64,000 nucleotides of DNA from an uncultured Alphaproteobacteria bacterium (GCA_902616075.1 CACMRK010000004.1:22346-86345), one strand, 5' to 3'; shown: positions 34,034 through 54,168, counted from the stretch's first letter. Made by a program: numbers and translations. The notes: generated by a model not told the origin, from the sequence alone.

Positions 34034-34039
34034 CTTAAA

Positions 34040-34069: not shown

Positions 34070-34084
34070 AATGAAGTATATTTT

Positions 34085-35131: not shown

Positions 35132-35171
35132 TATTCCCCTCCTAAATAAAAATTACATTAAATAAAATAAA

Positions 35172-38069: not shown

Positions 38070-38111
38070 TGTTTTTCTTTATTAATTCAAAAAATATAGT
38101 AGTTTAAATTA

Positions 38112-39002
38112 ATGAATAATGAAGTAATAATTTCGTGTGCTGTAACTGGATCAGGAGATACAGCAGGCAAACATCCTGAATTACCTATAACACCAAAACA
38201 AATTGCTGATGCTTCAATTGAAGCTGCCAAAGCGGGTGCAGCAATAGCTCATTTACATGTAAGGGAACCTGATGGCAAACCTTCTAGAAATTTAAGTTAT
38301 TATAAAGAAGTGGCAGATAGAATTCGCTCTTCTGATACTGATGTAGTTTTAAATTTTACTACAGGTATGGGTGGTGATTTTGAAGTTGGAACAGGTAAAG
38401 ATCCTTTAAATCCCGTGGGAGCAAATACAGATATGATCGATGCATTAAGCAGATTAGAACATGTTGAAGAGTTATTGCCAGAAATTTGTACTTTAGACTG
38501 CGGATCACTAAATTTTGGTGACTCAAACATGACATTTATTCATACACCGATACAACTAAGAACTGCAGCAAAAAAAATGCAGGAGCTTGGAGTGAAACCA
38601 GAAATGGAAGCTTTTGAAATGGGTCATTTATGGTTTGCTAACCAACTTTATAAAGAAGGTTTAATTGATGGTCCTCCTTTTTATCAAATATGCCTTGGCA
38701 TACCTTGGGGATCACCTGCAACAACGAGCGCAATGAAAGCAATGGCTGAAATGGTACCTACTGAAGGTATTTGGTCTGGATTTGGAATAGGAAGATCACA
38801 AATGCCCATGGCTGCACAAGCAGTTATTTTAGGAGGAAATGTTCGTGTGGGACTTGAAGATAATCTTTATTTAAAGAAAGGAGTTTTTGCATCAAATGCA
38901 CAGTTAGTTGAAAAAGCAAGATGCATTGTTGAAGATATGGGGGCTTCTATTTTATCCCCTCAACAGACTAGAGAGAAATTAAAACTAAAAAAACATTTTT
39001 AA
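38112..39002 (+). CDS. BKACE (DUF849) family beta-keto acid cleavage enzyme, dehydrocarnitine-cleaving type by context
   Basis: BKACE pattern [10 protein letters not shown]...[27 protein letters not shown]...NFTTGMGG. It lies 1 nt upstream of a carnitine-dehydrogenase-like gene. Confidence 0.7.
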
Positions 39003-39003
39003 T

Positions 39004-39924
39004 TTGAAAAATATTGCTGTCATTGGAACTGGTGTAATTGGTACCGGCTGGATACTTAGATTTCTCGCTAATGGTATAAAAGTCAAAGCATTTGATAAAA
39101 ATTCTCAGCAATTACATTTTCTAAAAGAAGAAATAACAAGAACAAACTTAATTATAAAGAAATTATATAATACAAAAATCAATTTCAAAAATTTGGAAAT
39201 CGTAGACAGTATTGAAGAAGCAGTAAAAAATGCAGAGTTAATTCAGGAAAATGTCCCCGAACGATTAACTTTAAAAAAAGATGTTATAAAAAATATAAGT
39301 AAATATTCACCCTCAAATTCAATAATTGCTTCAAGTTCATCTGGTTTACTTCCATCAGATTTACAATCAAAATGTATTAATCCAAAAAGATTAATCATAG
39401 CTCATCCATTTAACCCTGTATATATTCTCCCTTTGGTTGAAATTGTAAAAGGTAAAAAAACTACAAATTTATATCTAAATAAAGCAAAAAAATTTTATCA
39501 AAAAATTAAAATGAAGACATTATCGGTAGAAAAAGAATTACCAGGCTTTTTATCTGATAGATTGCAAGAAGCTTTGTGGAGAGAGGGGTTACATATTGTA
39601 AATGATGGATATGCTTCAACAAAAGATTTAGATGAAGCAATCACTTATGGGCCTGGTATGAGGTGGGCTTTAATGGGAACTTTTCTTACTTTTCATCTTG
39701 CTGGAGGAGAAATGGGTATGAAACACATGTTAGATCAATTTGGACCAGCATTAAAACTTCCATGGACTAAACTGAAATCTCCAAAATTGACAAAAAAGCT
39801 TAAAGAAAAAATCATCAAAGGAACAAAAAAACAATCAAATAATCATTCTATAAAAGATTTAAGTAACATAAGAGATAATTTCTTAATAGATTTGCTAGAA
39901 TTAAAGAAAAAATATAAATTATAA
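39004..39924 (+). CDS. L-carnitine dehydrogenase-like 3-hydroxyacyl-CoA dehydrogenase family protein
   Basis: Rossmann motif IAVIGTGVIGTGW and 3HCDH N- and C-terminal domains. TTG start per the track. BKACE and thioesterase gene context. Confidence 0.65.
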   Translation: MKNIAVIGTGVIGTGWILRFLANGIKVKAFDKNSQQLHFLKEEITRTNLIIKKLYNTKINFKNLEIVDSIEEAVKNAELIQENVPERLTLKKDVIKNISKYSPSNSIIASSSSGLLPSDLQSKCINPKRLIIAHPFNPVYILPLVEIVKGKKTTNLYLNKAKKFYQKIKMKTLSVEKELPGFLSDRLQEALWREGLHIVNDGYASTKDLDEAITYGPGMRWALMGTFLTFHLAGGEMGMKHMLDQFGPALKLPWTKLKSPKLTKKLKEKIIKGTKKQSNNHSIKDLSNIRDNFLIDLLELKKKYKL

Positions 39925-39926
39925 TT

Positions 39927-40934
39927 ATGACAATAATCTCAAAATATGTAGCTTTAAAAAATTATATACCAACTGGCTTACCCAAAGAAGAGGATTTTGA
40001 AATTAAATCTAAAACTTTAGAATTAGATGAAACAAATAATATTCATGTTCTTAATTCATGGATATCTGTTGATCCGTATATGAGAGCAAGAATGACAGAA
40101 CGTAAAAATTATAAACCACCCTTTTTACTAGGCGAGGAAATGGAAGGTTATGCAATTGGGTCAGTACAAAAATCAAAAGATTCACAATTTAAAGAAGGAG
40201 ATGTTGTTTTCAGTAATTTTGGAATGAGAGATAACTTCATTTGCAAAGGCGGTGATTTAAAAAAAATAAAAAATTCCAATCTTCCATTGCAAACTTATCT
40301 AGGACCTTTAGGAATGACAGGTCAAACAGCATATATTGGTCTTTTTAATCATGGAAATATACAAAAGGGACAAAGTATTCTTGTATCTTCAGCAGGTGGA
40401 AGTGTTGGATCAACAGTTTGTCAAATTGCAAAAAATTTAGGATGTAAAGTTTATGCTAGTACAGGATCAGATGAAAAAGTTGATTGGTTAAAAAATGAAT
40501 TAAATGTTGATGTGGCATTTAATTATAAAAAAATTGATAACCTTGTTCTTCACTTAAAAGAAATTTGTCCTGAAGGATTTGACTTATATTTTGATAATGT
40601 TGGGGGTGATTTTTTAGAGTCTGCGATTTTTCGAATGAAAAATTTTGGAAGAATTATTATTTGTGGAAGAATATCTCAGATGAATTCAACTTCTACTCCT
40701 GCTGGACTAAAAAATATGGCTCACGTATTAGTAAAAAGATTAACAATAAAAGGTTTTTTAATTTTTGATCATGAAAATGATAATGAGCCTTTTGAAACTG
40801 ATATGCGAAATTGGATTTCAGAAGGAAAAATAAAATTTAAAGAAACAATTTATGAAAATATAGAAAATGCTCCTAAAGCATTTATAGATTTACTTAATGG
40901 TAAAAATTTAGGCAAAATGTTAGTTAAAATTTAA
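39927..40934 (+). CDS. NADP-dependent oxidoreductase, MDR superfamily (alkenal/enone reductase, PTGR1/YncB/CurA-like)
   Basis: SVDPYMRARM and AGGSVGSTVCQIAK motifs; 335 aa. Begins 2 nt after the dehydrogenase gene. Confidence 0.7.
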   Translation: MTIISKYVALKNYIPTGLPKEEDFEIKSKTLELDETNNIHVLNSWISVDPYMRARMTERKNYKPPFLLGEEMEGYAIGSVQKSKDSQFKEGDVVFSNFGMRDNFICKGGDLKKIKNSNLPLQTYLGPLGMTGQTAYIGLFNHGNIQKGQSILVSSAGGSVGSTVCQIAKNLGCKVYASTGSDEKVDWLKNELNVDVAFNYKKIDNLVLHLKEICPEGFDLYFDNVGGDFLESAIFRMKNFGRIIICGRISQMNSTSTPAGLKNMAHVLVKRLTIKGFLIFDHENDNEPFETDMRNWISEGKIKFKETIYENIENAPKAFIDLLNGKNLGKMLVKI

Positions 40935-42374
40935 CTAAATTGTAACGTAGGGAGACGTCCCTCGATATTTTATATCTAATTTAAGTTCTTTATCAATTGG
41001 AGGAAAAGCTCTTTGCTGACATTCCACTCTAGGGCATATCCTACACGAAACTCCAATTGGCATTTGTAATTTTTTATTATTAAGATCAATTCCTTCAGAA
41101 TAAATTAGATCTTTAGCGTATTTCATATCACAACCTAAACCAATCGAAACAAAACTTTTAGGCATTCCATGTTTTTCAATTCCTTTCTCAAAAGCTCTTG
41201 CTATACAAAAATATACTCGTCCATCAGGCATTTTAGATATTTGAGGATGAATTTTTCCAGGATTTAAAAAAGCAGTATACACATTCCATCTAGGACAAGA
41301 ACCTCCATGTCTTGGTATATGAATACCAGATAAAGAAAATCGCTTTGACACATTTCCAGCAATATCTGTTTTTAAAAAATGAAATGGCACTCCTTCGTTT
41401 CCAGGTCTTTGAAGATTTGTTAATCTATGTGTAACTTGTTCAAAACTACAAGCATAATGATGCATCAAAATTTCTACATCATATTTATGTAATTTAGCAC
41501 TCTTTAAAAAATCGTTATAAGGCATCATAAAAGCAGCAGCATAATAATTTAGTAAAGATAGTTTAAGCAAAGGTTCTACTTCTTCTGATTCGACGTTATT
41601 ATCTTTAATAACTTTATTGATAACATCATTAGCCTCTAAATAAGCAACTTGTGATGCTAAATGAAAGTTTCTTGATGTGTAAGTTAACATTTCAGAAAGA
41701 TAAAAAATCTTGGATTTTTCATCAAATCTTTTAACTATTTTTTCATCTTCGTTTATGGTCACTATTTTAACTTCAATTCCATGTTTTTCTTTAAGATAAA
41801 GTGATAATTTAGATCCAGAACCAATGTTAGGTCCAGTTTCAAGACCTATTTCTTTTCTTAGATTTTCAGAACTTACTTCTAAATCATGAAAATAATTTTT
41901 ATTTTCTTGAAGAATATCTGAAACGATTTCTACAGGTAATCTTGTTGGTTTTTCAATTTGATTTGCATTGACATCCATCGTTTCAAGTCGATTTTGCATA
42001 TCTTCTTTAAAACTTTTAAAAGAATCATTTATTGTCAGTAATGCCTTAGCTATGTTAGGATTTGAACCAATAAAGTCACTTGTGTCATAATTGGTTATCT
42101 TTAAATCATCAAAAATCTCATTGCTTAAAACATCCATTACGTCTGAAAGTAGTCGTTTACTAGATTCTGTTGAGAAGTCTTTAATTGATAAATCTAATTT
42201 ATCAGCTGCTTTAATTAGTAAGGAAAGTGGTATTTTTCTTTTTCCACTTTCAATTAAATTTAAATAACTAGGAGATATACCAATAGTTTTTGATAATTCA
42301 GCTTGTGAAAAACCTTTGCTTATCCTTTGTTTTTTTAACCTTGGGCCAAAATTTATGTCAGATTCAATATTCAT
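40935..42374 (-). CDS. ScfR/RamB/PrpR-family transcriptional regulator (XRE HTH + DUF955-like + DUF2083 Cys-rich domain)
   Basis: N-terminal XRE HTH (FSQAELSKTIGISPSYLNLIESGKR). Central degenerate ImmA/IrrE-like region (NFHLASQVAYLE). C-terminal GGSCPRWNV ... CRICPRVECQQRAFPP cysteine pattern typical of the family. Confidence 0.8.
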   Translation of the reverse strand: MNIESDINFGPRLKKQRISKGFSQAELSKTIGISPSYLNLIESGKRKIPLSLLIKAADKLDLSIKDFSTESSKRLLSDVMDVLSNEIFDDLKITNYDTSDFIGSNPNIAKALLTINDSFKSFKEDMQNRLETMDVNANQIEKPTRLPVEIVSDILQENKNYFHDLEVSSENLRKEIGLETGPNIGSGSKLSLYLKEKHGIEVKIVTINEDEKIVKRFDEKSKIFYLSEMLTYTSRNFHLASQVAYLEANDVINKVIKDNNVESEEVEPLLKLSLLNYYAAAFMMPYNDFLKSAKLHKYDVEILMHHYACSFEQVTHRLTNLQRPGNEGVPFHFLKTDIAGNVSKRFSLSGIHIPRHGGSCPRWNVYTAFLNPGKIHPQISKMPDGRVYFCIARAFEKGIEKHGMPKSFVSIGLGCDMKYAKDLIYSEGIDLNNKKLQMPIGVSCRICPRVECQQRAFPPIDKELKLDIKYRGTSPYVTI

Positions 42375-42482: not shown

Positions 42483-42662
42483 ATGAACAGTAAATTAACA
42501 GAAAATATTAACAACCAAAAAGACAGCCTAGAGCAGAGTTCTATTGAGAAGAAGGTTCTTGAAGGATCTATAGACTCAAATTATGACCTTAATCTTGCTG
42601 ATGGTATCGAAGCATACTACAGCGAAAGATACGGTTGGACTCTTAGAAGAAAAACGATCTAA
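42483..42662 (+). CDS. unannotated 59-aa hypothetical protein (below the ORF-track size cut-off)
   Basis: My translation is MNSKLTENINNQKDSLEQSSIEKKVLEGSIDSNYDLNLADGIEAYYSERYGWTLRRKTI*. It is the only open frame in the largest gap of the window, has a G+C-enriched 3' half, and is followed by a hairpin + T-run. Confidence 0.4.
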   Translation: MNSKLTENINNQKDSLEQSSIEKKVLEGSIDSNYDLNLADGIEAYYSERYGWTLRRKTI

Positions 42663-42682: not shown

Positions 42683-44284
42683 CTAACTAACGGTACTATT
42701 TATTTGGTCGTAAGCTTTTTCAGCAATCATAATAGTTGTTGCATTTAAATTAGCACTAACAATATCTGGCATTACAGAAGCATCAATAACTCTTAAATTT
42801 TGAATTCCATGAACCCTTAGGTCTTGGTCTACAACTGAAGTTTTGTCCTCACCCATTTTATTAGTGCATGACGGATGATACGCAGATTCAGATGTATTTT
42901 TAATAACTTCATTTAATTCATTTTGATTAGATACATTTTTCCCAGGCCTAATTTCTTTACCGAGATACTCTTTAAGTGGTTTTTGAGACAAAATTTTTCT
43001 AGCAATTCTTACACCTTCTCTCATTTGTTTTAAATCATCCTCATGCTTAAGGTAATTAAATTGAATTTTAGGATCATCTTTATAGTTATTTGTTTTAATT
43101 TTAATAAAACCTCTGCTTTTTGGTCTATTTGGACATACATGAAATTGAAAAGCTTCAAACTTAGGATTTTCTAAACCATGATTAATAACTAAGTACGGAA
43201 AAAAATGAAATTGTAAGTTTGGATGACTATATGATTTGTCAGATTTAACAAACCCTCCTAATTCTAAATGTGAGTTTGCTAATCTACCTTTTTTAAATAA
43301 AAACCATTTTGATCCCTCAATAGCTTGATAAAGATAATTCGTTGCTAGAGTATGTAATGTTTCATTTTTTTTAGATTTATACTGAATGTACATCTCTAAA
43401 TGATCTTGTAAATTTTCTCCCACCCCAACTAAATTATTAATAACTTCTATTCCCAAGCTTTTAAGATACGTTTCATTACCTATTCCGGATAGTTGAAGAA
43501 TTTTAGGTGAATTAATTGAACCAGCACAAAGTATAACTTCTTTATTGGCTAAATAATTATTGGTTATATTTTTTTTAATCGTTTCAACACCAATTGCAGT
43601 TTTATTTTTAAAAAGAATTTTTTTAACATCAATATTATTTATTATTCTTAGATTTTTTCTATTTTGGATTGGCTCTAAATATGCCTTAGCAACACTTTGC
43701 CTAACACCATTGTTTATTGTTACATCAAAAGTTCCAAAACCTTCCTTATCAATACTGTTAGAGTCATTAAATATTTTATATCCAGCTTCTTGTGCAGCTT
43801 CTAAAACTTTTTTAAATAGAGGATATTTTTTATCTATGTTTGATTTATTTACTTTTAATGGCCCCTCTTTACCTCTTACATTACTATCATGAGACCAAGT
43901 TTCTAATTTTTTAAAAAAAGGTAAAACTTTTTCATATGACCAATTAGTTAAACCACTTGAAGACCATCTATCAAAATCCTCTTTATGACCTCTAGCGAAA
44001 ACCATTCCGTTATGCGAAGAGCATCCCCCGATCATTTTACCTCTTGGACAATATAAAGATCTATTATTTAGAAACGGCTCAGGCTCAGTATAATATTTCC
44101 AATTATATTTTGGATCATGCATTGCATATAGAAGTGCACTTGGCATATCAACTTTCCAGGTTTTACTGGATGGGCCAGCTTCTAATAAAATTACAGAATT
44201 CTTTGATTGTGAAGACAATCTGTTAGCTAAAACACAACCTGCTGACCCTGCTCCAACAATGATGTAGTCAGCGTTTTTATCCAC
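42683..44284 (-). CDS. GMC family oxidoreductase (choline dehydrogenase-like), copy 1
   Basis: FAD fold DYIIVGAGSAGCVLANRLS and a GMC C-terminal substrate domain with AYHPSCT and VIDASVMP. Confidence 0.85.
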   Translation of the reverse strand: MDKNADYIIVGAGSAGCVLANRLSSQSKNSVILLEAGPSSKTWKVDMPSALLYAMHDPKYNWKYYTEPEPFLNNRSLYCPRGKMIGGCSSHNGMVFARGHKEDFDRWSSSGLTNWSYEKVLPFFKKLETWSHDSNVRGKEGPLKVNKSNIDKKYPLFKKVLEAAQEAGYKIFNDSNSIDKEGFGTFDVTINNGVRQSVAKAYLEPIQNRKNLRIINNIDVKKILFKNKTAIGVETIKKNITNNYLANKEVILCAGSINSPKILQLSGIGNETYLKSLGIEVINNLVGVGENLQDHLEMYIQYKSKKNETLHTLATNYLYQAIEGSKWFLFKKGRLANSHLELGGFVKSDKSYSHPNLQFHFFPYLVINHGLENPKFEAFQFHVCPNRPKSRGFIKIKTNNYKDDPKIQFNYLKHEDDLKQMREGVRIARKILSQKPLKEYLGKEIRPGKNVSNQNELNEVIKNTSESAYHPSCTNKMGEDKTSVVDQDLRVHGIQNLRVIDASVMPDIVSANLNATTIMIAEKAYDQINSTVS

Positions 44285-45066
44285 TAATTCATTCTTTCAG
44301 TGTTTCCATCAACAGTCATGATTTGACCAGATACATTTTCTGAAGCATCGCTCAATAAAAATAATGCCATTGATGCAATATCTTCTTTTTCTACAAATGT
44401 GTTTAATGAAACCATTGACTCTAATTCTTTTCTTACTTTTTTATTTGAAGAATTTATTAATTTAGCTTTTGCATTTATTACCCTATCCATTCTATCGCCA
44501 TTAACAGAACCAGGACAAATTGCATTCACACGTATTTTAAATTTTCCTAATTCAACTGCTAATGTTTTAGTTAATCCAATTACTGCCCATTTACTTGATG
44601 CATATGGTGAACGTTGAGCAAAACCATATAATCCTGCAGTTGAAGATAAATTAATAATAGATCCTTTTTTAGCATTTTTTAAAAATGGAATAGCAAATTT
44701 TGTGAAATAAAAATGTGAACTTAAATTGGTTTTAATCGTGTTATCCCATTCATCTATTGAAATATTTTGAAGATACTTTGTAGGTCCTGCAATGCCTATA
44801 TTATTTATTAATCCATCTATTTTTTTTAAGTTAGATAGAGACTTAAAATATTCTTTAATGTCTTTTGGATTTGTGCAGTCTAAGTGTTTAGCAAATATTT
44901 TATTACGATATTTTTTGTTTAAATTTATTTTATCAATTTTTGATTTATTTATATCAGATAAATATACTTTTCCACCAGAACTGATTATTTTATTTGCTAT
45001 AGCAAAACCTAAGCCATCTGCACCAGCAGAAATAATATAATTTTTTTTACTAAGGTTAATTTTCAT
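44284..45066 (-). CDS. SDR family oxidoreductase
   Basis: 260 aa with the catalytic YASSKWAV (YxxxK), NNIG and a PG motif. Shares 1 nt with the GMC gene start. Confidence 0.8.
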   Translation of the reverse strand: MKINLSKKNYIISAGADGLGFAIANKIISSGGKVYLSDINKSKIDKINLNKKYRNKIFAKHLDCTNPKDIKEYFKSLSNLKKIDGLINNIGIAGPTKYLQNISIDEWDNTIKTNLSSHFYFTKFAIPFLKNAKKGSIINLSSTAGLYGFAQRSPYASSKWAVIGLTKTLAVELGKFKIRVNAICPGSVNGDRMDRVINAKAKLINSSNKKVRKELESMVSLNTFVEKEDIASMALFLLSDASENVSGQIMTVDGNTERMN

Positions 45067-45333
45067 TTATTGAATATTATCTATCTCTTTTTTAGAAATA
45101 TATCCAATAGTTTTACCTTTATTGTCAGTAACTACTATTGTTAAGTTGTCTTCAAGAATTTTATTTTTAAAATTTTTTAGTTTTATATTTTGGTTTACTT
45201 TGTAAATAGAACCTAATGTTAAATTATCTTTATTAAAACTGTTCTCAATTATCATTATATTTTTTGCTTCTAGATTATCTATTCTATTTTCTTTGCTAGA
45301 AAAAATATTAAGTAAAAATTTAAATATATTCAT
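45067..45333 (-). CDS. 88-aa protein with a single CBS-like motif
   Basis: The C-terminal NLTIVVTDNKGKTIGYISKKEIDNI resembles the beta2-beta3-alpha2 end of a CBS domain. It is packed with 0 nt to the SDR gene and 18 nt to the ABC ATPase gene. Confidence 0.45.
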   Translation of the reverse strand: MNIFKFLLNIFSSKENRIDNLEAKNIMIIENSFNKDNLTLGSIYKVNQNIKLKNFKNKILEDNLTIVVTDNKGKTIGYISKKEIDNIQ

Positions 45334-45351
45334 TATTTAAAATATAGATTA

Positions 45352-46965
45352 CTAGGAAGATCTTTTATTCAGAAGATTGGTTAGCCAATCAGGATCCATT
45401 TCTGGGACTGAAGACAATAAAAGTTCTGTATAATCAGGATATGGCGGATTCAAAATTTTACTTTTCAAACCCTGTTCCACTACCTCACCTTGATACATAA
45501 CAACTATTTCATCTGAGATTGCTTTAACCGTTGCTATATCATGTGTTATAAAAATATAAGTAACACCAAGATCTTTTTGTAATTTTTGGAGTAATTTTAA
45601 TATTCCTTCTTGAACAATTTGATCTAGCGCTGATGTTACTTCATCACAAATAATTAAATCTGGGTTAGCCGCTAAAGCTCTTGCAATGCATATTCTCTGT
45701 TTTTGACCTCCAGATAATTCGGATGGTAATCTATCTAAAAAAGTTTCATCTAGTTCAATCATTTTTAATAATTCAATAACTTTTGCTTCTCTTTCTTTCC
45801 CTTTTATACCTTGATAAAATTCTATTGGCCTTCCTATTATTTCATCAACAGTTTGACGGGGGTTCATTGCAGTATCAGGCATTTGAAAAATTATTTGAAT
45901 TCTTCTTAATTCTTCTTTTGACCTTTGTTCAAGTTTTGGAGACAATTTTTTTCCATCAAAAATTATTTCTCCTTTTAATTGAGGAAGTAAGCCTGTAATT
46001 ACTCTTGCTGTTGTTGATTTTCCTGATCCACTTTCGCCAACTATAGCTACTGTTTTACCTTTAGGAATATCTATAGAAACATTGTGTAAGACCTTAGATG
46101 AGCCATATGCTGCATCAATATTTTTAATGGACAACATATAATCTTCATTTGTTTCTTCAGGCTTGATCAGTGATCTTACTGACCATAGAGATTTAGTGTA
46201 TTCTTCTTTTGGGTTTGATAGCATATCTCTTGTTTCAGCTTCTTCAACTTCTTCACCGTATCGCAAAACTTTTATTCTATCAGCCATTTGAGCAACTACG
46301 GCTAAATCATGAGTAATATAAATTGCTGCTGTATTAAATTTGTCTACTATAGATCTCATAGCAGATAATACTTCTACTTGAGTAGTTACATCTAAGGCAG
46401 TAGTTGGTTCATCAAATATTATTAACTCTGGTCTTGGGGACATAGCCATAGCAGTCATTATTCTTTGAAGTTGGCCTCCTGATACTTGGTGCGGGTATCT
46501 ATCTCCTATATTTTCCGCATCTGGAAGCTGTAGTGATTCATAAAGTTGTACAGCATCTTTTTTTAATACATCCGTGGGATTTATCTTTAATCTATTAGCG
46601 GCACTTATTGTTTGATCCATTAATCTATGAGCAGGATTAAAAGATGCTGCTGCTGATTGAGCAACATAAGATATTTTAGTTCCCCAAATCTTTCTCTTTT
46701 CAAATTCAGTTAGTTTAGCGAGGTCTATGCCGTTAAAATTAATTTCTCCCTTTATAATCTTACAACCAGGTTGGGTATAGCCCATTGCAGCTTTACCCAT
46801 AGTAGATTTTCCGGCACCACTCTCTCCTATTAATCCTAGTATTTCTCCTCTGTGTAAAGTCAAATCTACACCTTTTAAAATTTTATGCCATCTCTCATCT
46901 GAAAATCCATCAATATGGATATTTTTCATTTCAAGTAGGAGTTCTTTTGATTTATTTGACGTCAT
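45352..46965 (-). CDS. ABC transporter ATP-binding protein, fused double ATPase (DppD-DppF/GsiA-like)
   Basis: Two Walker A sites (GESGAGKST, GESGSGKST), two signatures (VSGGQLQR, LSGGQKQR) and two Walker B sites. Confidence 0.9.
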   Translation of the reverse strand: MTSNKSKELLLEMKNIHIDGFSDERWHKILKGVDLTLHRGEILGLIGESGAGKSTMGKAAMGYTQPGCKIIKGEINFNGIDLAKLTEFEKRKIWGTKISYVAQSAAASFNPAHRLMDQTISAANRLKINPTDVLKKDAVQLYESLQLPDAENIGDRYPHQVSGGQLQRIMTAMAMSPRPELIIFDEPTTALDVTTQVEVLSAMRSIVDKFNTAAIYITHDLAVVAQMADRIKVLRYGEEVEEAETRDMLSNPKEEYTKSLWSVRSLIKPEETNEDYMLSIKNIDAAYGSSKVLHNVSIDIPKGKTVAIVGESGSGKSTTARVITGLLPQLKGEIIFDGKKLSPKLEQRSKEELRRIQIIFQMPDTAMNPRQTVDEIIGRPIEFYQGIKGKEREAKVIELLKMIELDETFLDRLPSELSGGQKQRICIARALAANPDLIICDEVTSALDQIVQEGILKLLQKLQKDLGVTYIFITHDIATVKAISDEIVVMYQGEVVEQGLKSKILNPPYPDYTELLLSSVPEMDPDWLTNLLNKRSS

Positions 46966-47872
46966 CTTTTAATCCGCTAGTAATGTAAAGATACCAATCA
47001 ACAACAAAATTAATTGATACACAAAGCAAAGCAATTGCAGCAGCTGGAATTAATGGTGTTAAACCTGCTGTTATATCATATTGTGCATATTGAATAAGTA
47101 TTGCATTTTCCCTCACCATTGATGCCCAATCTGCTGAAGGGGGTTGAATTCCAATTCCTAAAAAACTTAAACTAGATATTGTAAAAATTATAAATATGAA
47201 CCTTAAACCAAACTCAATAATCAAAGGTGAAGCTATATTAGGAAGTATTTCTCTGAAAATAATATATGATAAATTTTCACCTCTTAGCCTCGCGACCTCA
47301 ACATATTCTAGAACAACTTGACCAACAGCAACTGATCTTGATATTCTAAAAAATCTAGTTGATTCCAAAATTCCTAAAATGACAATTAAATTAAAATTAG
47401 TAGGTCCAAAAACTGATAAAAGTATAAATGTAAAAATCATTACAGGTATAGCCATAAGCGTGTCTACTATTCTACTTAATAGTTGATCTAAATACCTTCT
47501 ATCCAAAGCAGCTATAATTCCAAATACTGTTCCAATTCCTAAAGCAATAAAAGTAGCCAATAAACAAATACCAATTGTATTTCTTGCAGCATAGATAATG
47601 CGAGAAAAAATATCTCTTCCAATTTGATCAGTACCAAATATATGGCCATCACCCCAAGGAGCATAAGCTACTGGGAATATTTCTGCTTCTCCATGTGGAG
47701 CAATTAAGGGAGCAAATATTGCAGCAAAAAAATATATGAATAGTACAATCATACCAAACCAAGCTGAGATTGGAGCTTTTGATAAGGCAATTTTTAATCT
47801 TTCTAATCTAGTTCTTCTTTTGATTAAATTTGCAACTTCACTTTTTGCAGAATAAGATAAATTTTCGCTCAT
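46952..47872 (-). CDS. ABC transporter permease (DppC/OppC-like)
   Basis: Six TM segments. N-terminal extension followed by the GTDQIGRDIFSRIIYAARN motif typical of the DppC family. Confidence 0.85.
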   Translation of the reverse strand: MSENLSYSAKSEVANLIKRRTRLERLKIALSKAPISAWFGMIVLFIYFFAAIFAPLIAPHGEAEIFPVAYAPWGDGHIFGTDQIGRDIFSRIIYAARNTIGICLLATFIALGIGTVFGIIAALDRRYLDQLLSRIVDTLMAIPVMIFTFILLSVFGPTNFNLIVILGILESTRFFRISRSVAVGQVVLEYVEVARLRGENLSYIIFREILPNIASPLIIEFGLRFIFIIFTISSLSFLGIGIQPPSADWASMVRENAILIQYAQYDITAGLTPLIPAAAIALLCVSINFVVDWYLYITSGLKDDVK

Positions 47873-48867
47873 TTTGGGTATAGTAACCTTGGGTTAGAAA
47901 TAATGCCGATCAAGTCAGCAATTAAATTTAATATTACATATGTTGATGCAAAAATTAATGCACAAGCTTGAACAACAGGTAAATCTCGATTATAGACTGA
48001 TCCGACCATCAACCTACCAATACCTTGATAGTTAAAAACATATTCAACAACAACTGAGCCAATCAACATATAAGCTAAGTTTATTGCAATTACTTGAGAA
48101 ATAGGTGCCCAAGCATTTGGAAGTGCATGTTTAACAATTACCTCGTATCTAGAAGCTCCCGATAATTTTGCCATTTCAATATATTCACTTGATAAGATAT
48201 TTATTATCGCTGACCTTGTCATTCTCATCATGTGACCCATAGTAATTAATGTCAAAGTAAAAACTGGAAGAGCAGTCCTGTAAAATCTTTCAGCCAAAGT
48301 TGAAGCTTCATCCACATTAGAAATAGTTGGAAAAACTGGAAACAGTGTCGCTAGTAAAAGAATAAAAATATAGGCTGTAAAAAATTCTGGTGAAGATACG
48401 GTTACTAAGCTAACTCCAGTTGCTGACCTATCATAATAAGAGTTTCTGTATAATGCTGCTGAAATACCTAAGATTAAAGATAGAGGAATAGCCAACATGG
48501 CGGCAACCCCTGTTAAAAATAATGTATTCTTTAATCTGGGTACAATTAAACCAACAACTTCTCTGGACCTATCACCTTGATCCCCTTGAACTTTAGATCT
48601 TCCAGAGAAAGAACTACCAAAATCTCCTTGAAAAACATTTCCTAACCAATCAAAATATCTTGTGACTGGAGGTTTATCTAAACCCAATTCTGCTCTTAGA
48701 GCTTTTACTGCAGATTTTGTTGCACTTTGACCTAATATTTCCGTAGCAAAGTCTCCCGGTAAAAAAGAGAATGTACTAAATATTATTACCGAAAATGCAA
48801 AAACTGTAACGAGACCAAGACTAAGCCTTAACAAAATTGTTCTAAATATTGGATGAATTCTAGTAAT
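47869..48867 (-). CDS. ABC transporter permease (DppB/OppB-like); probable non-canonical ATT start
   Basis: The track ORF starts at TTG 48834, but the frame stays open upstream to 48891. A strong SD, AAGGAGG (48879-48873), lies 5 nt before ATT 48867-48865. A DppB-like N-terminus (…IFRTILLRLSLGLV) would be truncated by the TTG start. Confidence 0.7.
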   Translation of the reverse strand: MTRIHPIFRTILLRLSLGLVTVFAFSVIIFSTFSFLPGDFATEILGQSATKSAVKALRAELGLDKPPVTRYFDWLGNVFQGDFGSSFSGRSKVQGDQGDRSREVVGLIVPRLKNTLFLTGVAAMLAIPLSLILGISAALYRNSYYDRSATGVSLVTVSSPEFFTAYIFILLLATLFPVFPTISNVDEASTLAERFYRTALPVFTLTLITMGHMMRMTRSAIINILSSEYIEMAKLSGASRYEVIVKHALPNAWAPISQVIAINLAYMLIGSVVVEYVFNYQGIGRLMVGSVYNRDLPVVQACALIFASTYVILNLIADLIGIISNPRLLYPK

Positions 48868-49009
48868 ATTACCCTCCTTAAAGATACAATCTTAATTCTT
48901 AAAGTTTTGTCTAAATTAGGTCAACATGTAAGCTAAAATTAATAATTTATACGTTGAATTAAAACGTTATATATGTTTTTATATATTAACTTAAGTTTGT
49001 TTTTTGTTA

Positions 49010-49023
49010 AATTTCTAGAAATT
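49010..49023. promoter_or_regulatory. perfect 14-bp palindrome AATTTCTAGAAATT in the divergent transporter control region
   Basis: Read directly from the sequence. It lies 46 nt upstream of the SBP ATG (49069). Confidence 0.3.
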
Positions 49024-49025
49024 AT

Positions 49026-49050
49026 GAACAAAAATCTTAGGTTTTTGTTC
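49026..49050 (+). promoter_or_regulatory. 5'-UTR hairpin immediately upstream of the SBP Shine-Dalgarno
   Basis: GAACAAAAAT (49026-49035) pairs with GTTTTTGTTC (49041-49050) as 9 Watson-Crick pairs plus 1 G:U, with a 5-nt loop. The SD GGGAGG follows at 49059-49064. Confidence 0.4.
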
Positions 49051-49068
49051 AAGTATAAGGGAGGACAA

Positions 49069-50697
49069 ATGAAAAATAAGAAAATAGACAAATACATTGA
49101 AGAACAGTCTTCAAAGCTAACAAAAGGGCTTATTGATAGAAGACAGTTTATGATGTCTGTCCTTGCTACTGGGGTCACGCTTCCAATTGCATTATCATTA
49201 GCAGATAAAGCAGTTGCAGCTACACCAAAAAAAGGTGGACATTTAAGATGGGGTAATAGTGCAGCAGATGCAACTGATACTCTTGATCCAGCAACTTATC
49301 AGAGCTCATTTATGCAAGCTACTGCTTGGTCATATCAGAACTGTCTAACTGTTGTTGATTCTGATCACACAATTGTTGGAGAGCTTGCTGAGTCAATTGA
49401 ATCAGATGATGCTCAAACTTGGGTATATAATCTTCGCAAAGGTGTTGAATTCCATAATGGTAAATCAATGACAGCAGAAGATGTTGTGCTCAACTACCAG
49501 TATCATATGAATCCAGATACTGCTTCGGCAGCAGGCGGACTGTTATCTCAAATTGAGACAGTTTCTGCTGATGGAAATGACAGAGTTATTTTTAAGCTAA
49601 AAGGTGCAAATGCCGATTGGCCTGCAATAACTACTGACTATCATATTATGATTAAACCAACAAAAGATGGAGTTGTTGATGCTCAATCAACGATTGGAAC
49701 TGGTCCATATATTATGGATGAATTCAATCCTGGTGTTGGTGCAAAATTTGGAAAAAGAAATCCAAATTATTTCAAAGGTGATAGTGTTGCACACTTTGAT
49801 TCAGTTGAAGTAATTGGTATTAATGATCCTGCTACTAGACAAGCAGCATTATTAAACGGTGAAATTGATTGGATGAATGGTGTTGATCTTAGAACTGCTA
49901 ATCTATTAACTAGAAATCCTAGTGTAGAAATTACAGCAGCTTCTGGTTACGCTCACTATACAGCTCCAATGCGATTGAACGTTCCACCGTTTGATAACTT
50001 TGATGTACGTATGGCAATGAAGTTTGCAATTAAAAGACAGGAAATTGTTGATAAGATTATGCTTGGATATGGTACTGTTGGTAATGATCATCCGATCTCT
50101 ACTGCTCACCCATATCACAATAGCGCTTTAGAGCAGAGAGAGTTTGATGCTGATAAAGCTGCATATCACTGGAAAAAATCTGGTGTAAGTGGACCAATTG
50201 AAATTAGTACTTCAGAGGTTCCTTATGCAGGATGTACAGATGCAACAAACTTGATTGCAGCATCTGCCCAAGAATGTGGTATCGATCTTAGAGTTAAAAA
50301 AGAGCCTGAAGATGGTTACTGGAGTAACGTATGGAACACAAAAGGTTTCAGTATGAGTTCTTGGGGTGGAAGACCTACAGAGGATATGATGTGGTCTGCT
50401 GCATTCACAGATGACACTGAATGGAACGAAGCTGCATGGGGTAATCTAGTTCAAACTGATTCAACTGTTCGTTTCAATGAACTTGTTAGATCTGCTAGAT
50501 CAGAACTTGATGCAGAAAAAAGAAAATCAATGTACTGGGAAGCACAAGCACTTTGTAACTACGATGGTGGTGCAATTGTTTATGCATTTAACCAATACGT
50601 TGGTGCTGGTTCTAAAAAACTTGCTCACGGTGAAGATGTTGCTGGTAACTGGGAAAGTGACGGTAACAAACTTTCTGAACGTTGGTGGTTTGCATAA
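49069..50697 (+). CDS. ABC transporter substrate-binding protein, family 5 (DppA/OppA-like) with twin-arginine signal peptide
   Basis: I place the start at ATG 49069 (SD GGGAGG 4 nt upstream) rather than the track's 48973. Tat motif DRRQFMMSVLATGVTLPIALSLADKAVA|A. Family-5 SBP body. Visibly higher G+C and codon bias than its neighbours. Confidence 0.85.
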   Translation: MKNKKIDKYIEEQSSKLTKGLIDRRQFMMSVLATGVTLPIALSLADKAVAATPKKGGHLRWGNSAADATDTLDPATYQSSFMQATAWSYQNCLTVVDSDHTIVGELAESIESDDAQTWVYNLRKGVEFHNGKSMTAEDVVLNYQYHMNPDTASAAGGLLSQIETVSADGNDRVIFKLKGANADWPAITTDYHIMIKPTKDGVVDAQSTIGTGPYIMDEFNPGVGAKFGKRNPNYFKGDSVAHFDSVEVIGINDPATRQAALLNGEIDWMNGVDLRTANLLTRNPSVEITAASGYAHYTAPMRLNVPPFDNFDVRMAMKFAIKRQEIVDKIMLGYGTVGNDHPISTAHPYHNSALEQREFDADKAAYHWKKSGVSGPIEISTSEVPYAGCTDATNLIAASAQECGIDLRVKKEPEDGYWSNVWNTKGFSMSSWGGRPTEDMMWSAAFTDDTEWNEAAWGNLVQTDSTVRFNELVRSARSELDAEKRKSMYWEAQALCNYDGGAIVYAFNQYVGAGSKKLAHGEDVAGNWESDGNKLSERWWFA

Positions 50698-50713
50698 AAT
50701 ATTAATTTTCTTT

Positions 50714-50735
50714 GTGGCGCATTTAAATGCGCCAC
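50714..50735 (+). terminator. GC-rich hairpin (terminator/attenuator) after the SBP gene
   Basis: The 22-nt perfect palindrome GTGGCGCATTTAAATGCGCCAC sits 16 nt after the SBP stop, followed by a T-containing tract (ACTATTTCT). The next gene starts 26 nt downstream. Confidence 0.65.
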
Positions 50736-50761
50736 ACTATTTCTACTAATCTTCCAAAAAA

Positions 50762-51726: not shown

Positions 51727-52956
51727 ATGGGAGATTTAATTAGTAATTACAGATTTGTCGTTAAGCCAGTTATTAAGGAAACTGGTAGATCTTTGGATTT
51801 GGCTAGGCCCATGAAAATACATCCTCTCACTTATCAAGAGTTACCACTCAACCCAGAATATACTAACTACGCCGATGGAAGATTTACGCTTGAAAAATTA
51901 TCTCATGCTACAGCAGATGAAATGTATTGGAAAGCTAGACAAGAAATAATTTTAAGACATACGGGCGAGCATCCATACGAAATTTCTGGTCCGGATGCTG
52001 AAAATTTACTTCAACAAATATTTCCTAGAGATATTTCAAAAGTAAAAATAGGACGATGTTCTTATCAATTTGCTTGTTATCATGATGGAGGAATGATTTC
52101 AGATGGATTATTATTAAGACTAGAAAAAAATAAATTTTGGTTTGCACAAGGTGATGGACATTTATACAGTTGGTACAAAGCTCATTCGAAAAATTTAGAT
52201 GTTGAAATTAAAGATCCAAATGTTTGGGTAAGTCAAATACAAGGACCTAAATCTCTAAAATTGTTAGAGAAACTAATTGATCAACCATTAAAAAATAATT
52301 TTAATTACTTTGATTGGATTGAAACTTCAATTGCTTCAGAAAAAGTAATTATAAGTAGAACAGGGTTTACGAATGAACTAGGTTGGGAAATTTATTTAAG
52401 GCCAGAAAATAATTCCAAAAAAATTGGGGACTTAATACTCAGTAAGGGTGAAGAAATGGGAATGATCCTAACAGCCTCTCCAGGGTTTAGATGTAGAAGA
52501 ATTGAGGCAGGTCTCTTATCTGCAGGGAGAGATTTTACAAGAGACAGATCTCCATTTGCTGTTGGATTAGGAAAATTTATAGATTTTAATAAGGGAGATT
52601 TTATTGGAAGAGATTATTTACTAAATACAAGCAAAGATTGTTTAACATGGGGTATGAGAGTGGAAAATAGTTTTGCATTGGTTGATTCTGAAATTTCTAT
52701 TAATAATAAAAAAGTTGGAATTGTAACTTCAAGTACATGGTCGCCATTTCAAGTTTGTGGTGTTGCTATAGTTCATATGGATAAAGCAGAATTTGGACCA
52801 GATACAATAGTAGATGTTAGATGCGATGATGGTACTTTACAAAAAGGTGAAATATGTACTTTACCAATGTATGATGAGAAAGGAGAAATACAAAGAGGTT
52901 TAAAAGAAAATATTCCATCTAGCCCTATACCTTGGAAGGGTATTTCAAAAAACTAA
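51727..52956 (+). CDS. GcvT-family (aminomethyltransferase fold) protein, LigM/DesA-like putative THF-dependent demethylase
   Basis: 409 aa with GcvT-fold motifs (ISGPDAENLL, VSQIQGPKS, ISRTGFTNELGWEIY, RIEAGLLSAGRDF). The N-terminal PEYTNY...W region resembles LigM-type demethylases, from my recollection. Confidence 0.6.
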   Translation: MGDLISNYRFVVKPVIKETGRSLDLARPMKIHPLTYQELPLNPEYTNYADGRFTLEKLSHATADEMYWKARQEIILRHTGEHPYEISGPDAENLLQQIFPRDISKVKIGRCSYQFACYHDGGMISDGLLLRLEKNKFWFAQGDGHLYSWYKAHSKNLDVEIKDPNVWVSQIQGPKSLKLLEKLIDQPLKNNFNYFDWIETSIASEKVIISRTGFTNELGWEIYLRPENNSKKIGDLILSKGEEMGMILTASPGFRCRRIEAGLLSAGRDFTRDRSPFAVGLGKFIDFNKGDFIGRDYLLNTSKDCLTWGMRVENSFALVDSEISINNKKVGIVTSSTWSPFQVCGVAIVHMDKAEFGPDTIVDVRCDDGTLQKGEICTLPMYDEKGEIQRGLKENIPSSPIPWKGISKN

Positions 52957-53004: not shown

Positions 53005-54168
53005 ATGAATGATCTCATTAAACCTAGCAATAAAATCCATACAATAGATGATGCAATAAGATTATCTAAAAAAAGATTACCAAAATTAGTCTTTGACTTT
53101 ATTGATGGAGCATCAGGAGATGACAAACTTGCAGAAATTAATAGTACAGCATTAGATCAAATTAGACTTGAGCCTAAGGTTTTTAGAAATGTTGAGAATA
53201 GAAATTTAAGTAAAAAAATATTTGATTTTCATTTTGATTATCCATTTGGATTTGCACCAATGGGAATGACAAATCTTTCATGGCCTGATGCAGATAAAAT
53301 GATAGCAAAAGAAAGTGCGTATAATAATATTCCAACATGTGTTTCAATGGCTTCTAGTACTACGTTAGAAGATATGTTTACTTTTTCAGAAGGTCATTCG
53401 TGGATGCAAATATATATTTTTCAAAGTGAAGAATTTATTATGGAATTATTAAAAAGAGCAGAAAGTATTGGATACAAGGTCTTGATCCTCACTGTTGATG
53501 TTCCAATTCTTTCAAGAAGAGCTAGAGATGATAGAAATGGCTTTGGTTATCCATTTAAAATTGGCCCAAAACAATTTTTAGATTTTGCACTACATCCTCA
53601 ATGGAGTTTAACAACTTTGTTTAAAGGCGCTCCACAACCAATGAATTATGTTACCTCTAAAAGTGGTGATCAAATTTTTAGACGAAAAGAAAGTAGAGGA
53701 GCAACTGATTGGAGTACTCTAAAAAGGGTTCGAGAGGCTTGGAAAGGAAAATTAATAATCAAAGGAGTAATGAATTCTGAAGATGCTTTGAAAATTAAAG
53801 AGGCTGGTGCTGATGCAATTCAAGTATCAAATCATGGTGGAAGGCAATTAGATAGTGCTACTGCTTCTATTAATGCTTTGCCATTAATACGAAAAGCTTT
53901 GGGAGACGATTTTCCAATACTTTTTGATAGTGGCATTAGAAGTGGTAGTGATATTTTACGAGCATTAGCTCTGGGAGCTAACTTTGTTATGTTTGGCAGA
54001 CCTTTAATGTATGCTATTGGAGCAGATGGTGCAAGAGGTCTTAGAAGAATCATTAACCTAATTAAAGAAGAGTTAAGTACAAATCTTGGCTTAGTGGGAT
54101 TAACCGATATAAATGAAGTTGATAAAAAAATTATAGCAGAGAAATTTTTTAAGGATATAAAGTACTAA
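53005..54168 (+). CDS. FMN-dependent alpha-hydroxy acid dehydrogenase/oxidase (LldD/glycolate oxidase/MdlB family)
   Basis: TIM-barrel FMN motifs (LTVDVPILSRRARD, SNHGGRQLD, GIRSGSDILRALALGA). Confidence 0.85.
   Translation: MNDLIKPSNKIHTIDDAIRLSKKRLPKLVFDFIDGASGDDKLAEINSTALDQIRLEPKVFRNVENRNLSKKIFDFHFDYPFGFAPMGMTNLSWPDADKMIAKESAYNNIPTCVSMASSTTLEDMFTFSEGHSWMQIYIFQSEEFIMELLKRAESIGYKVLILTVDVPILSRRARDDRNGFGYPFKIGPKQFLDFALHPQWSLTTLFKGAPQPMNYVTSKSGDQIFRRKESRGATDWSTLKRVREAWKGKLIIKGVMNSEDALKIKEAGADAIQVSNHGGRQLDSATASINALPLIRKALGDDFPILFDSGIRSGSDILRALALGANFVMFGRPLMYAIGADGARGLRRIINLIKEELSTNLGLVGLTDINEVDKKIIAEKFFKDIKY

Follow-up and report, generated by a model that had tools for sequence, protein, structure and literature searches.

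Import of carnitine by a PepT-family transporter is known from a roseobacter, an OpuA-type island from Arctic SAR11 and carnitine genes from offshore SAR11. The carnitine importer CntTUVW (SPO2995-2998) of Ruegeria pomeroyi DSS-3, assigned by mutant growth and drawdown, is a four-gene ATP-binding cassette (ABC) system of the peptide/nickel/opine uptake family (PMC10130141). The Arctic SAR11 island combines a betaine-type ABC transporter with CHDH, CDH, BKACE, BBOX and ACOT (PMC12421898), carnitine metabolism is reported to be specific to offshore SAR11 genera (PMC12636525), and DmpXWV is an ABC importer of Roseobacters and SAR11 that is specific for dimethylsulfoniopropionate (DMSP) (PMC10030565). 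Here we analyse a 64,000-nucleotide stretch of DNA from an uncultured alphaproteobacterium (GCA_902616075.1, CACMRK010000004.1:22346-86345; hereafter the window), which has a G+C content of about 29% and in the part analysed matches a contig (locus L012) of the SAR11 single-cell genome AG-891-K19 almost exactly. At 42683-50697 it carries a Dpp-type importer with two oxidoreductase genes. We describe the anatomy and synteny of this locus, the replacement of one transporter cassette by another, the origin of an 88-residue open reading frame (ORF) and the genes with which the transporter family is associated, and we lean towards the reading that the importer carries not peptides but a small methylated onium compound, similar to carnitine or choline.

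The transporter has the make-up of the PepT family (TC 3.A.1.5), with two DppB/DppC-type permeases, an ATPase with an oligo_HPY domain and an SBP_bac_5 protein. Listed from the distal end of the minus-strand operon to its start, followed by the divergent binding-protein gene, the locus consists of:

42683-44284, minus strand: glucose-methanol-choline (GMC) oxidoreductase, choline-dehydrogenase-like (GMC1; Pfam GMC_oxred_N and GMC_oxred_C), the last gene of the operon
44284-45066, minus strand: short-chain dehydrogenase/reductase (SDR; Pfam adh_short and adh_short_C2)
45067-45333, minus strand: 88-residue ORF (p88), which aligns with the tail of ProV/ChoV-type ATPases
45352-46965, minus strand: fused ATPase of 537 residues with two nucleotide-binding domains, peptide/nickel/opine ABC family (two ABC_tran stretches and oligo_HPY)
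46952-47872, minus strand: DppC/OppC-type permease (OppC_N and BPD_transp_1)
47869-48858, minus strand: DppB/OppB-type permease (BPD_transp_1_N and BPD_transp_1; ORF listed as 47869-48834 from a TTG)
48859-49068: divergent intergenic region, including a leader of about 100 nucleotides upstream of the binding-protein gene
49069-50697, plus strand: family-5 (cluster C) solute-binding protein (SBP_bac_5, PF00496, 228 bits, cut-off 32)

ORFs, Pfam matches and a direct reading of the junctions agree with the gene order, the divergent family-5 binding protein and the overlaps or spacers of 0-18 nucleotides given in the initial annotation of this DNA. The TAG of the ATPase gene is followed after 18 nucleotides by the ATG of p88, the TAA of p88 abuts the ATG of the SDR gene with no gap, the SDR TAG overlaps the GMC GTG by 1 nucleotide (TAGTG), and the permease and ATPase genes overlap by 14 and the two permease genes by 4 nucleotides. 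The first permease probably starts not at the TTG at 48834 but further 5', at an ATT at 48858; the reading frame thereby gains eight codons (48835-48858, IHPIFRTI, then L), which match the homologue N-termini MHPVLATVLQRL, and a AAGGAGGG site precedes the ATT. A terminator scan revealed no terminator-like site between the transporter genes and p88, SDR and GMC, and promoter-like matches in the same interval were no commoner than in shuffled sequence. With no terminator-like site between the genes, and with start and stop codons that touch or overlap, the arrangement is most simply read as one transcription unit, and we infer that the transporter genes and both oxidoreductase genes share a transcript. 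The ratio of nonsynonymous to synonymous substitution (dN/dS) is 0.03 for the binding protein, 0.036 for the ATPase, 0.11 for the SDR, 0.13 for GMC1 and 0.20 for p88; the value for the binding protein points to very strong purifying selection.

Beyond GMC1 lies a regulator gene, a small ORF and a group of carnitine-type genes:

37602-38069, minus strand: thioesterase, matching the C-terminal domain of fused carnitine 3-dehydrogenase
38112-39002, plus strand: BKACE, best NCBIfam match 3-keto-5-aminohexanoate cleavage enzyme
39004-39924, plus strand: L-carnitine-dehydrogenase-like 3HCDH protein (NCBIfam L-carnitine dehydrogenase 344 bits, cut-off 414)
39927-40934, plus strand: Zn-type oxidoreductase, in the carnitine-type gene group 37602-40934
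40935-42374, minus strand: ScfR/RamB-type regulator (helix-turn-helix, M78-like, ScfRs; Pfam ScfRs 209 bits), downstream of GMC1 on the same strand
42483-42662, plus strand: conserved 59-residue ORF between the regulator gene and GMC1, convergent with GMC1 and matching no Pfam family

Carnitine dehydrogenase, BKACE and thioesterase are the enzymes by which L-carnitine is known to be turned into glycine betaine, and the proteins encoded here each score below the respective equivalog cut-off. ScfR-type regulators sense short acyl-CoAs, and the one encoded here may respond to a CoA intermediate such as betainyl-CoA. The 59-residue ORF ends in the motif YYSERYGWTLR, which reads (A/V)(Y/F)YSERYGWTL(R/K) across loci.

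The comparison with other SAR11 genomes revealed that the site has held two different transporters. The closest non-identical homologues of GMC1 (66-67% identity, about 543 residues) are encoded in other SAR11 genomes, and in the loci L158-L163 the translationally coupled SDR-GMC pair is found together with the 59-residue ORF, the regulator and the carnitine-type genes (SDR 61-68%, regulator 63-74% and 59-residue ORF 49-62% identity), the 1-nucleotide overlap between SDR and GMC being retained. Upstream of the SDR gene, every one of these loci whose contig extends that far (five loci: L158, L159, L160, L162 and L163) encodes an OpuAC-type binding protein, one permease and a 348-residue ProV-type ATPase. 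L162 and L163 share the outer flank of the window (PotD-like binding protein 90%, CN hydrolase 83%, agmatine deiminase 70% and HD protein 92% identity) as well as the island genes (thioesterase 82%, BKACE 85%, regulator 74%, 59-residue ORF 52%, GMC 67% and SDR 68%); the chromosomal site is therefore the same, and only the transporter differs. Judged by this synteny, the Dpp-type cassette occupies the slot that is held by an OpuA/ProU-type quaternary-amine importer in other SAR11 genomes. Since the SDR-GMC pair follows the OpuA/ProU-type transporter at the same site elsewhere, the pair belongs to the quaternary-amine island and not to the Dpp system as such. The OpuA-type loci correspond to the quaternary-amine island of Arctic SAR11 isolates, and four of them (L159, L160, L162 and L163) additionally encode a gamma-butyrobetaine hydroxylase, an aldehyde dehydrogenase (ALDH), a class II aldolase and EamA. 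A polyamine/agmatine cluster adjoins the island in the window (31294-37009, minus strand) and also flanks the OpuA-type island in L162 and L163; it encodes a PotD-like binding protein, a TOBE-domain ABC ATPase, an N-carbamoylputrescine-amidase-like CN hydrolase and an agmatine-deiminase-like protein. Overall, the annotated gene content identifies the neighbourhood as a SAR11 catabolic supercluster for methylated compounds.

The replaced cassette appears to have left a remnant. BLASTP aligned p88 over 69-84 residues with residues ~253-336 of the 348-residue OpuA-type ATPases of L159 and L158 at 37-42% identity (E values 4e-16 and 2e-17, respectively), and the first residues also correspond (MNIFKFLLNIF.SKENR in p88, MNPADDYVEAFVKDVNR in the ProV-type ATPase). 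The 348-residue ATPases themselves pass the proV subfamily model (373 bits, cut-off 326). In canonical ProV and OpuAA, the region after the nucleotide-binding domain is the site of the CBS regulatory domains. The alignments thus identify p88 as the detached C-terminal regulatory (CBS-like) tail of the replaced ProV/ChoV-type ATPase. The initial annotation had called p88 CBS-like: the Pfam CBS score is below threshold (14.5 bits, E=0.045, cut-off 24), and the label is nonetheless sensible given the homology to the ProV-type ATPase tail. Sub-threshold CBS scores (E 0.01-0.1) recur in two divergent p88 variants and in one of the two ProV-type tails tested; a single-sequence AlphaFold2 model of p88 was unusable (predicted local distance difference test, pLDDT, 49). 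The ORF is intact in 53 loci comprising 52 distinct nucleotide sequences and, by its substitution pattern, is under purifying selection and not decaying. A search of 1.84 billion representative proteins yielded only 20 relatives. Read-through from the ATPase gene into p88, which is in frame in the window, was considered and rejected as unlikely, as the spacer is 19 nucleotides long in most SAR11 loci and 18 in a few.

About 65 species-level SAR11 genomes, none from a cultured strain and most of them tropical single-cell genomes, encode the binding protein at 90-100% identity. In them, the genes from the carnitine-dehydrogenase-like gene through an enoyl-CoA hydratase gene are syntenic, and 90%-identity clusters in public collections number about 800-1250 sequences each (80 for p88). 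From GMC to permease, the genes are contiguous in 48 of the 49 SAR11 single-cell loci whose contig reaches that far, across GMC identities of 73-100% and spacers of 0-19 nucleotides. The initial annotation had described the importer as hard-wired to the GMC and SDR oxidoreductases and proposed to map the operon across SAR11 subclades; on mapping, the full operon proved to be confined to one SAR11 lineage. A second SAR11 subclade (L061, L079 and L081) encodes the transporter with a binding protein 90-91% identical to that of the window and lacks p88, SDR, GMC, the regulator and the carnitine genes; its ATPase gene is followed by genes for an EamA transporter and housekeeping functions, and its flanks (pheT, lepA) show no synteny with the window. 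L061 and L081 retain plus-strand genes (those for the BHMT-like and GcvT1 proteins described below), with the full block present only in L081. Within the operon itself, the permeases of L034-L040, L047, L050-L054, L062 and L064 are only 82% and 88% identical to those of the window (in contrast to L007-L030), with the ATPase at 95-96% and the binding protein at 95-98% identity, and the DppC/OppC-type permease exists in two allelic versions (~82% and 100% identity) among otherwise near-identical SAR11 loci. Such mosaic alleles indicate that recombination has taken place within the operon. Several versions of the BHMT-like gene exist too, at ~68%, 77% and 95% identity.

On the other side of the binding-protein gene, the plus strand carries a hairpin and a series of enzyme genes:

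50713-50736, plus strand: GC-rich hairpin of 10 pairs, 6 of them G-C, 15 nucleotides past the binding-protein stop codon
50762-51685, plus strand: homocysteine S-methyltransferase-family protein, a BHMT-like paralogue (S-methyl_trans 140 bits)
51727-52956, plus strand: GcvT-family (tetrahydrofolate-dependent) methyltransferase/demethylase (GcvT1; GCV_T and GCV_T_C)
53005-54168, plus strand: flavin mononucleotide (FMN)-dependent (S)-2-hydroxy-acid dehydrogenase/oxidase (NCBIfam L-lactate dehydrogenase subfamily, 270 bits)
54170-55912, plus strand: thiamine diphosphate (ThDP)-dependent enzyme of the oxalyl-CoA decarboxylase / 2-hydroxyacyl-CoA lyase type (profile and structure matches)
55916-56251, plus strand: small transthyretin/hydroxyisourate-hydrolase-like (TTR-like) protein (TIGR02962 70.6 bits, cut-off 87)
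56253-57374, plus strand: DmdA-family (DMSP demethylase-like) GcvT protein (NCBIfam DmdA equivalog 531 bits, cut-off 410)

The product of 56253-57374 exceeds the DmdA equivalog cut-off and matches the P. ubique DmdA structure 3TFH with 404 bits, the alignment beginning at Met15 of the listed ORF; it is a predicted DMSP demethylase, and neither dmdB nor dmdC is found near its gene. Genes for an OsmC-like protein and an enoyl-CoA hydratase also lie downstream on the plus strand. The BHMT-like protein keeps the C-terminal GGCC motif and scores far under the cut-offs of the BHMT and MmuM equivalogs, GcvT1 scores 180 bits with each of the DmdA and trimethylamine N-oxide demethylase models, under their cut-offs, and the solved relatives of the FMN dehydrogenase are L-lactate oxidase and mandelate dehydrogenase.

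To see which genes accompany the transporter outside SAR11, we surveyed its neighbours in 83 non-SAR11 loci, of which 57 span 6 kb or more. The family has thousands of alphaproteobacterial homologues at 49-59% identity, mostly marine, with the ATPase reaching up to 75% (73-75% in Hoeflea, Jhaorihella and an uncultured alphaproteobacterium). The neighbours were:

27 of 83 loci: S15/PepX (CocE/NonD) hydrolase
12 of 83: Abhydrolase_3 esterase
9 of 83: FMN dehydrogenase
8 of 83: ThDP enzyme, 66-96% identical to that of the window
8 of 83: GcvT/DmdA-like protein
8 of 83: EamA
4 of 83: TTR-like protein
3 of 83: flavoprotein resembling trimethylamine dehydrogenase (TMADH-like)
2 of 83: MttB-type methyltransferase
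2 of 83: GMC, 34-39% identity, non-adjacent in one locus

Neither the SDR nor p88 was found in any of the 83 loci, and M81 peptidases lie near the transporter in 3. The link to the plus-strand genes that had been proposed from the window alone gained strength here: the FMN-dehydrogenase/ThDP/TTR-like/DmdA-like block accompanies the transporter in 8-10 non-SAR11 loci and in the SAR11 subclade without SDR-GMC. Four chemically different kinds of methyl-group enzyme occur among the 83 loci, namely GcvT/DmdA-like, MttB-type, TMADH-like and, in one locus, Rieske, the last adjoining the transporter together with a reductase on a Mesorhizobium plasmid (L075). In addition, relatives of the binding protein at 42-44% identity lie within complete carnitine/gamma-butyrobetaine operons of Rhizobium johnstonii (pRL10) and Limimaricola variabilis, both taken from annotated records. 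The order on pRL10 is BKACE, carnitine 3-dehydrogenase, acyl-CoA dehydrogenase, CoA ligase, carnitinyl-CoA dehydratase, binding protein, two permeases, fused ATPase, CocE/NonD hydrolase and alpha/beta hydrolase, and that in Limimaricola is BKACE, binding protein, carnitine dehydrogenase, permeases and ATPase. A neighbour-joining tree placed the SAR11 proteins inside the large 49-59% clade, in which the esterase and the FMN-dehydrogenase/ThDP/TTR/GcvT contexts are interleaved, and the carnitine-operon copies outside it.

GMC1 passes the choline-dehydrogenase subfamily model PRK02106 (705 bits, cut-off 605), and its best solved relative is the choline dehydrogenase 9lq0 (450 bits). We rejected the notion that it is a canonical BetA: it scores 627 bits with the betA equivalog TIGR01810, below the cut-off of 732, and its neighbour is an SDR gene, not betB. 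Since it belongs to those GMC enzymes that most resemble choline dehydrogenase, GMC1 plausibly acts on an (amino)alcohol. No specific NCBIfam equivalog model reaches its cut-off on the SDR. The proposal in the initial annotation that the two enzymes oxidise an imported alcohol or polyol survives in part, in that an (amino)alcohol is plausible; a methylated onium compound is a likelier candidate than an unspecified alcohol or polyol.

Based on these comparisons, we propose the following scheme. The binding protein, exported via a twin-arginine-type signal, would pass the ligand to the two permeases, and the fused ATPase would power uptake. The older, family-wide partners of the transporter would be the plus-strand proteins, that is, the BHMT-like and GcvT-type demethylases, the FMN 2-hydroxy-acid dehydrogenase, and the ThDP, TTR-like and DmdA-like proteins. 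In this SAR11 lineage, the transporter cassette would have taken the slot of the OpuA/ProU-type importer just upstream of SDR-GMC, in an island that also holds the ScfR-type regulator and the carnitine-dehydrogenase, BKACE and thioesterase genes, so that the Dpp-type operon would now read through SDR-GMC and the last ~88 codons of the old ProV-type ATPase, kept as a free-standing, selected ORF. The probable task of the SDR-GMC pair is to oxidise hydroxyl groups of whatever is imported, or of a near congener, en route to glycine betaine, the methyl groups of which would then be stripped. From gene content we infer both these reactions and the ligand class, which is most likely a quaternary ammonium compound, or the analogous sulfonium, that bears a hydroxyl, carboxyl or ester group. 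The use of one slot by different transporters, the origin of p88, the relatives in carnitine operons, the precedent of CntTUVW, the methyl-group enzymes nearby and the choline-dehydrogenase-like GMC1 together make the onium reading somewhat more credible than its negation.

Several observations weigh against this reading. The closest solved binding proteins are only 15-22% identical and their ligands are unrelated, such that no ligand can be deduced from them. The carnitine-dehydrogenase-like protein, BKACE and the betA-like GMC all score below equivalog cut-offs, and a conserved hairpin stands between the binding-protein gene and the plus-strand enzyme genes. The S15/PepX-type hydrolase, the commonest neighbour, and the M81 peptidases would also fit a peptide-like or amino-acid-ester substrate. 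Finally, the link to SDR-GMC could be the passive legacy of one recombination event, kept by SAR11 synteny.

A passive by-product of one recombination event is indeed the main rival, the polyol and peptide/nickel readings being less likely. The transporter would then serve only the plus-strand module, whose substrate would be unrelated to that of SDR-GMC; deletion or recombination would have removed the OpuA-type cassette, leaving p88, SDR and GMC as passengers supplied through a general betaine transporter. The transporter-bearing subclade devoid of the entire island, the absence of SDR and p88 from all 83 non-SAR11 loci and the constant company that the regulator and carnitine genes keep with SDR-GMC all speak for such an accident. 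Against it stand the retention of the arrangement in 48 of 49 informative single-cell loci, the purifying selection on p88, SDR and GMC, and the want of a recognisable promoter or terminator of their own. Moreover, the family is independently tied to carnitine-type and methylated substrates, so both modules would concern the same chemistry anyway. We regard accidental juxtaposition as unlikely, for both the passenger status of p88-SDR-GMC and the unrelatedness of the two substrates.

A bolder variant, which we hold to be decidedly improbable, is that the transporter belongs to a route not yet described, in which it works with the FMN 2-hydroxy-acid dehydrogenase, the HACL/OXC-like ThDP enzyme, the TTR-like protein and the DmdA-like demethylase, joined in SAR11 by the BHMT-like methyltransferase. 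The route would handle a sulfonium or ammonium acid or ester that bears a hydroxyl group and originates in phytoplankton, and p88 would act in trans as a sensor. Candidate substrates may be 4-dimethylsulfonio-2-hydroxybutyrate (DMSHB), gonyol, homoserine betaine or an acyl ester, converted to DMSP/methylmercaptopropionate (MMPA) or glycine betaine, and p88 may be a free-standing, ProV-derived sensor that regulates a non-cognate ABC ATPase in trans. If true, this route would supply SAR11 with both reduced sulfur and methyl groups.

Automatic annotation would make the system an ordinary importer of peptides, amino-acid esters, opines or nickel with functionally unrelated neighbours, which we consider a poor prospect. 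Family membership is clear, the S15/PepX-type hydrolases (27 loci) and M81 peptidases (3 loci) fit peptide-like substrates, and hydantoinase/oxoprolinase, racemase and aminotransferase genes occur in some loci. However, the binding protein falls far below the cut-offs of all the specific NCBIfam models DppA, OppA, NikA, GsiB and CntA (Opp5A/NikA 106 bits against 600, GsiB 92 against 594, DppA 41 against 1005, OppA 48 against 947), and its best phmmer match to a solved binding protein scores 85.6 bits. The family recurs with carnitine operons and four kinds of demethylase, no nickel enzymes are encoded nearby, and S15 and Abhydrolase_3 genes also occur in the Rhizobium carnitine operon, pointing to ester hydrolysis (e.g. 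of acylcarnitines) and not proteolysis. Import of an uncharged alcohol or polyol that is oxidised at once by GMC and SDR and feeds the plus-strand operon is very unlikely: GMC and SDR are typical alcohol oxidoreductases encoded tightly behind the transporter genes, and some family-5 binding proteins in the Foldseek list bind sugars or sugar derivatives, but genes for sugar or polyol catabolism are absent from the window and from the 88 related loci, genes for demethylases, carnitine-type enzymes and esterases surround the transporter, SDR-GMC lies behind a betaine/choline-family transporter elsewhere, and GMC1 is closest to choline dehydrogenase.

Irrespective of its ligand, the binding protein has a distinctive N-terminus. 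It almost certainly starts at the ATG at 49069 (542 residues) and not at 48973, because a AGGGAGGA ribosome-binding site lies just 5', public NCBI and JGI calls give 542 residues and homologues start likewise. Its N-terminal sequence is MKNKKIDKYIEEQSSKLTKGLIDRRQFMM; a hydrophobic stretch comes next, and then AVA|A as the predicted cleavage site. The DRRQFMM motif and long polar n-region reported in the initial annotation are present, and with the 19-residue h-region and AVA|A the signal matches the twin-arginine (Tat) consensus. RR-x-F-hydrophobic is found in 119 of 119 full-length homologues, with the fuller motif (I/L)(D/S)RR(Q/K)F(I/V/M); because it is invariant, the alignment marks the twin-arginine motif as a trait of the family, not one specific to the SAR11 operon. 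The n-region of ~20 residues ahead of the twin arginines is itself conserved family-wide (Q13, G20, I22), which is unusual for signal peptides, and might mark a contact with a chaperone or targeting factor. The suggestion that Tat export hints at a cofactor is not upheld by these patterns, since the motif is invariant and the n-region conserved across the family and nothing points to a cofactor. No Pfam family matches the N-terminal 62 residues at E<=10, a search in which short Tat-signal models often miss true signals. Tat-type signals are common on alphaproteobacterial binding proteins. The 64-kb window contains no tat genes, and tatC was present in all Rickettsiales surveyed in a study that counted P. 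ubique among them (PMC3827258). An AlphaFold2 model of the binding protein (pLDDT 78.5) had as its top listed Foldseek matches the family-5 binding proteins DppA, YliB, NikZ and AapF (template modelling scores 0.65-0.75, 15-22% identity). Its invariant residues include the aromatic W418, W422, W432, W452, W457 and Y417.

The binding-protein gene is bracketed by two conserved non-coding elements. In an alignment of 51 distinct SAR11 versions of the leader (48960-49068), most columns of the last 100 nucleotides are at least 95% conserved, and the leader is more conserved than neighbouring wobble positions. A riboswitch search covering 36-64 kb of the window found no matching Rfam family, and the element may be an undescribed leader or operator. 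The hairpin behind the gene, TGTGGCGCA-TTTAAA-TGCGCCACA, stands out in a genome of 29% G+C; its core GGCGCA..TGCGCC is found in every SAR11 locus, and its outer stem shows compensatory changes. The hairpin probably acts as an attenuator or as a 3' stabiliser of the mRNA, setting how much binding protein is made relative to the downstream enzymes, and it suggests that the binding protein is expressed in excess over them.

Towards the right end of the window, a second GMC gene (60144-61781, 545 residues) followed by one for an ALDH of 490 residues resembling betaine aldehyde dehydrogenase (BADH) spans 58622-61781 on the minus strand, 14 kb from GMC1 and convergent with the DmdA-like, OsmC and enoyl-CoA hydratase genes. 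The second GMC is 37% identical to GMC1, falls under the choline-dehydrogenase cut-offs and is even less BetA-like; the two products are predicted to form an alcohol-to-aldehyde-to-acid pair. Divergent from the second GMC gene, a 272-residue protein with a weak dehydratase-like match (61841-62659, plus strand) precedes an MmgE/PrpD-family protein at the window edge (62656-63981, plus strand).

SAR11 is the most abundant heterotroph of the surface ocean, and its uptake shapes fluxes of carbon, nitrogen and sulfur. Its characterised binding proteins come from HTCC1062, which appears to lack this family. We looked for a characterised orthologue in that strain, but the text of the paper describing its binding proteins, when searched, nowhere mentioned one of the peptide/nickel type. 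The searchable literature yielded no account of this transporter family in SAR11, of a Dpp-type cassette replacing a betaine-type cassette at the same site, of an ATPase tail surviving as a gene of its own or of the family-wide FMN-dehydrogenase/ThDP/TTR/DmdA-like link. The annotation 'peptide/nickel' probably masks an importer of onium compounds, so that ocean metagenomic and metatranscriptomic reads labelled 'oligopeptide transporter' may be misassigned. In the exchange of cassettes, nature provides a clear case of a streamlined genome changing the transporter in front of catabolic genes that stay in place, and the surviving ATPase tail is a small test case for an independent gene born from a domain fragment.

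Among the known systems, DmpXWV resembles that of the window in that abundant marine bacteria use it as an ABC importer for an onium compound, and the link of the window's system to a DmdA-family gene is a further point in common with a DMSP importer. The DmpXWV genes do not cluster with those for DMSP catabolism. Identity of the two was rejected: DmpX was treed with TmoX as outgroup and its system has a single permease gene, whereas the window encodes two permeases and a fused ATPase, and DmpXWV appears to be of unrelated fold and family. GMC1 resembles BetA of the bet regulon: it is a full-length protein that exceeds the cut-off of the choline-dehydrogenase subfamily model, and among solved structures that of BetA comes nearest. 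GMC1 differs in falling below the betA equivalog cut-off and in having an SDR as partner instead of BetB and BetI. The Arctic SAR11 island and L158-L163 share with the window SDR-GMC, the 59-residue ORF, the ScfR-type regulator, the carnitine-dehydrogenase-like gene, BKACE and the thioesterase. Their transporter comprises an OpuAC binding protein, one permease and a ProV-type ATPase, whereas that of the window is Dpp-type, with the ATPase tail left as p88. The pRL10 and Limimaricola cassettes share the binding-protein family of the window and likewise comprise two permeases and a fused double ATPase; esterase genes adjoin them, and their clusters include BKACE and carnitine dehydrogenase. They form a separate, more distant branch with the catabolic genes inside the operon, and they lack the SDR-GMC pair, p88 and the BHMT-like and DmdA-like genes. 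No R. pomeroyi entry was found among the 120 best matches of the Limimaricola carnitine-operon binding protein, and we liken CntTUVW to the transporter of the window by family name and gene make-up: both are four-component systems of marine alphaproteobacteria, and CntTUVW has been assigned to a quaternary amine, not a peptide. Lying 5-11 kb from carnitine-type catabolic genes, the SAR11 transporter has the genomic association of a carnitine importer, and compared with CntTUVW its operon adds p88, SDR and GMC and is linked to the FMN-dehydrogenase/ThDP/DmdA-like block.

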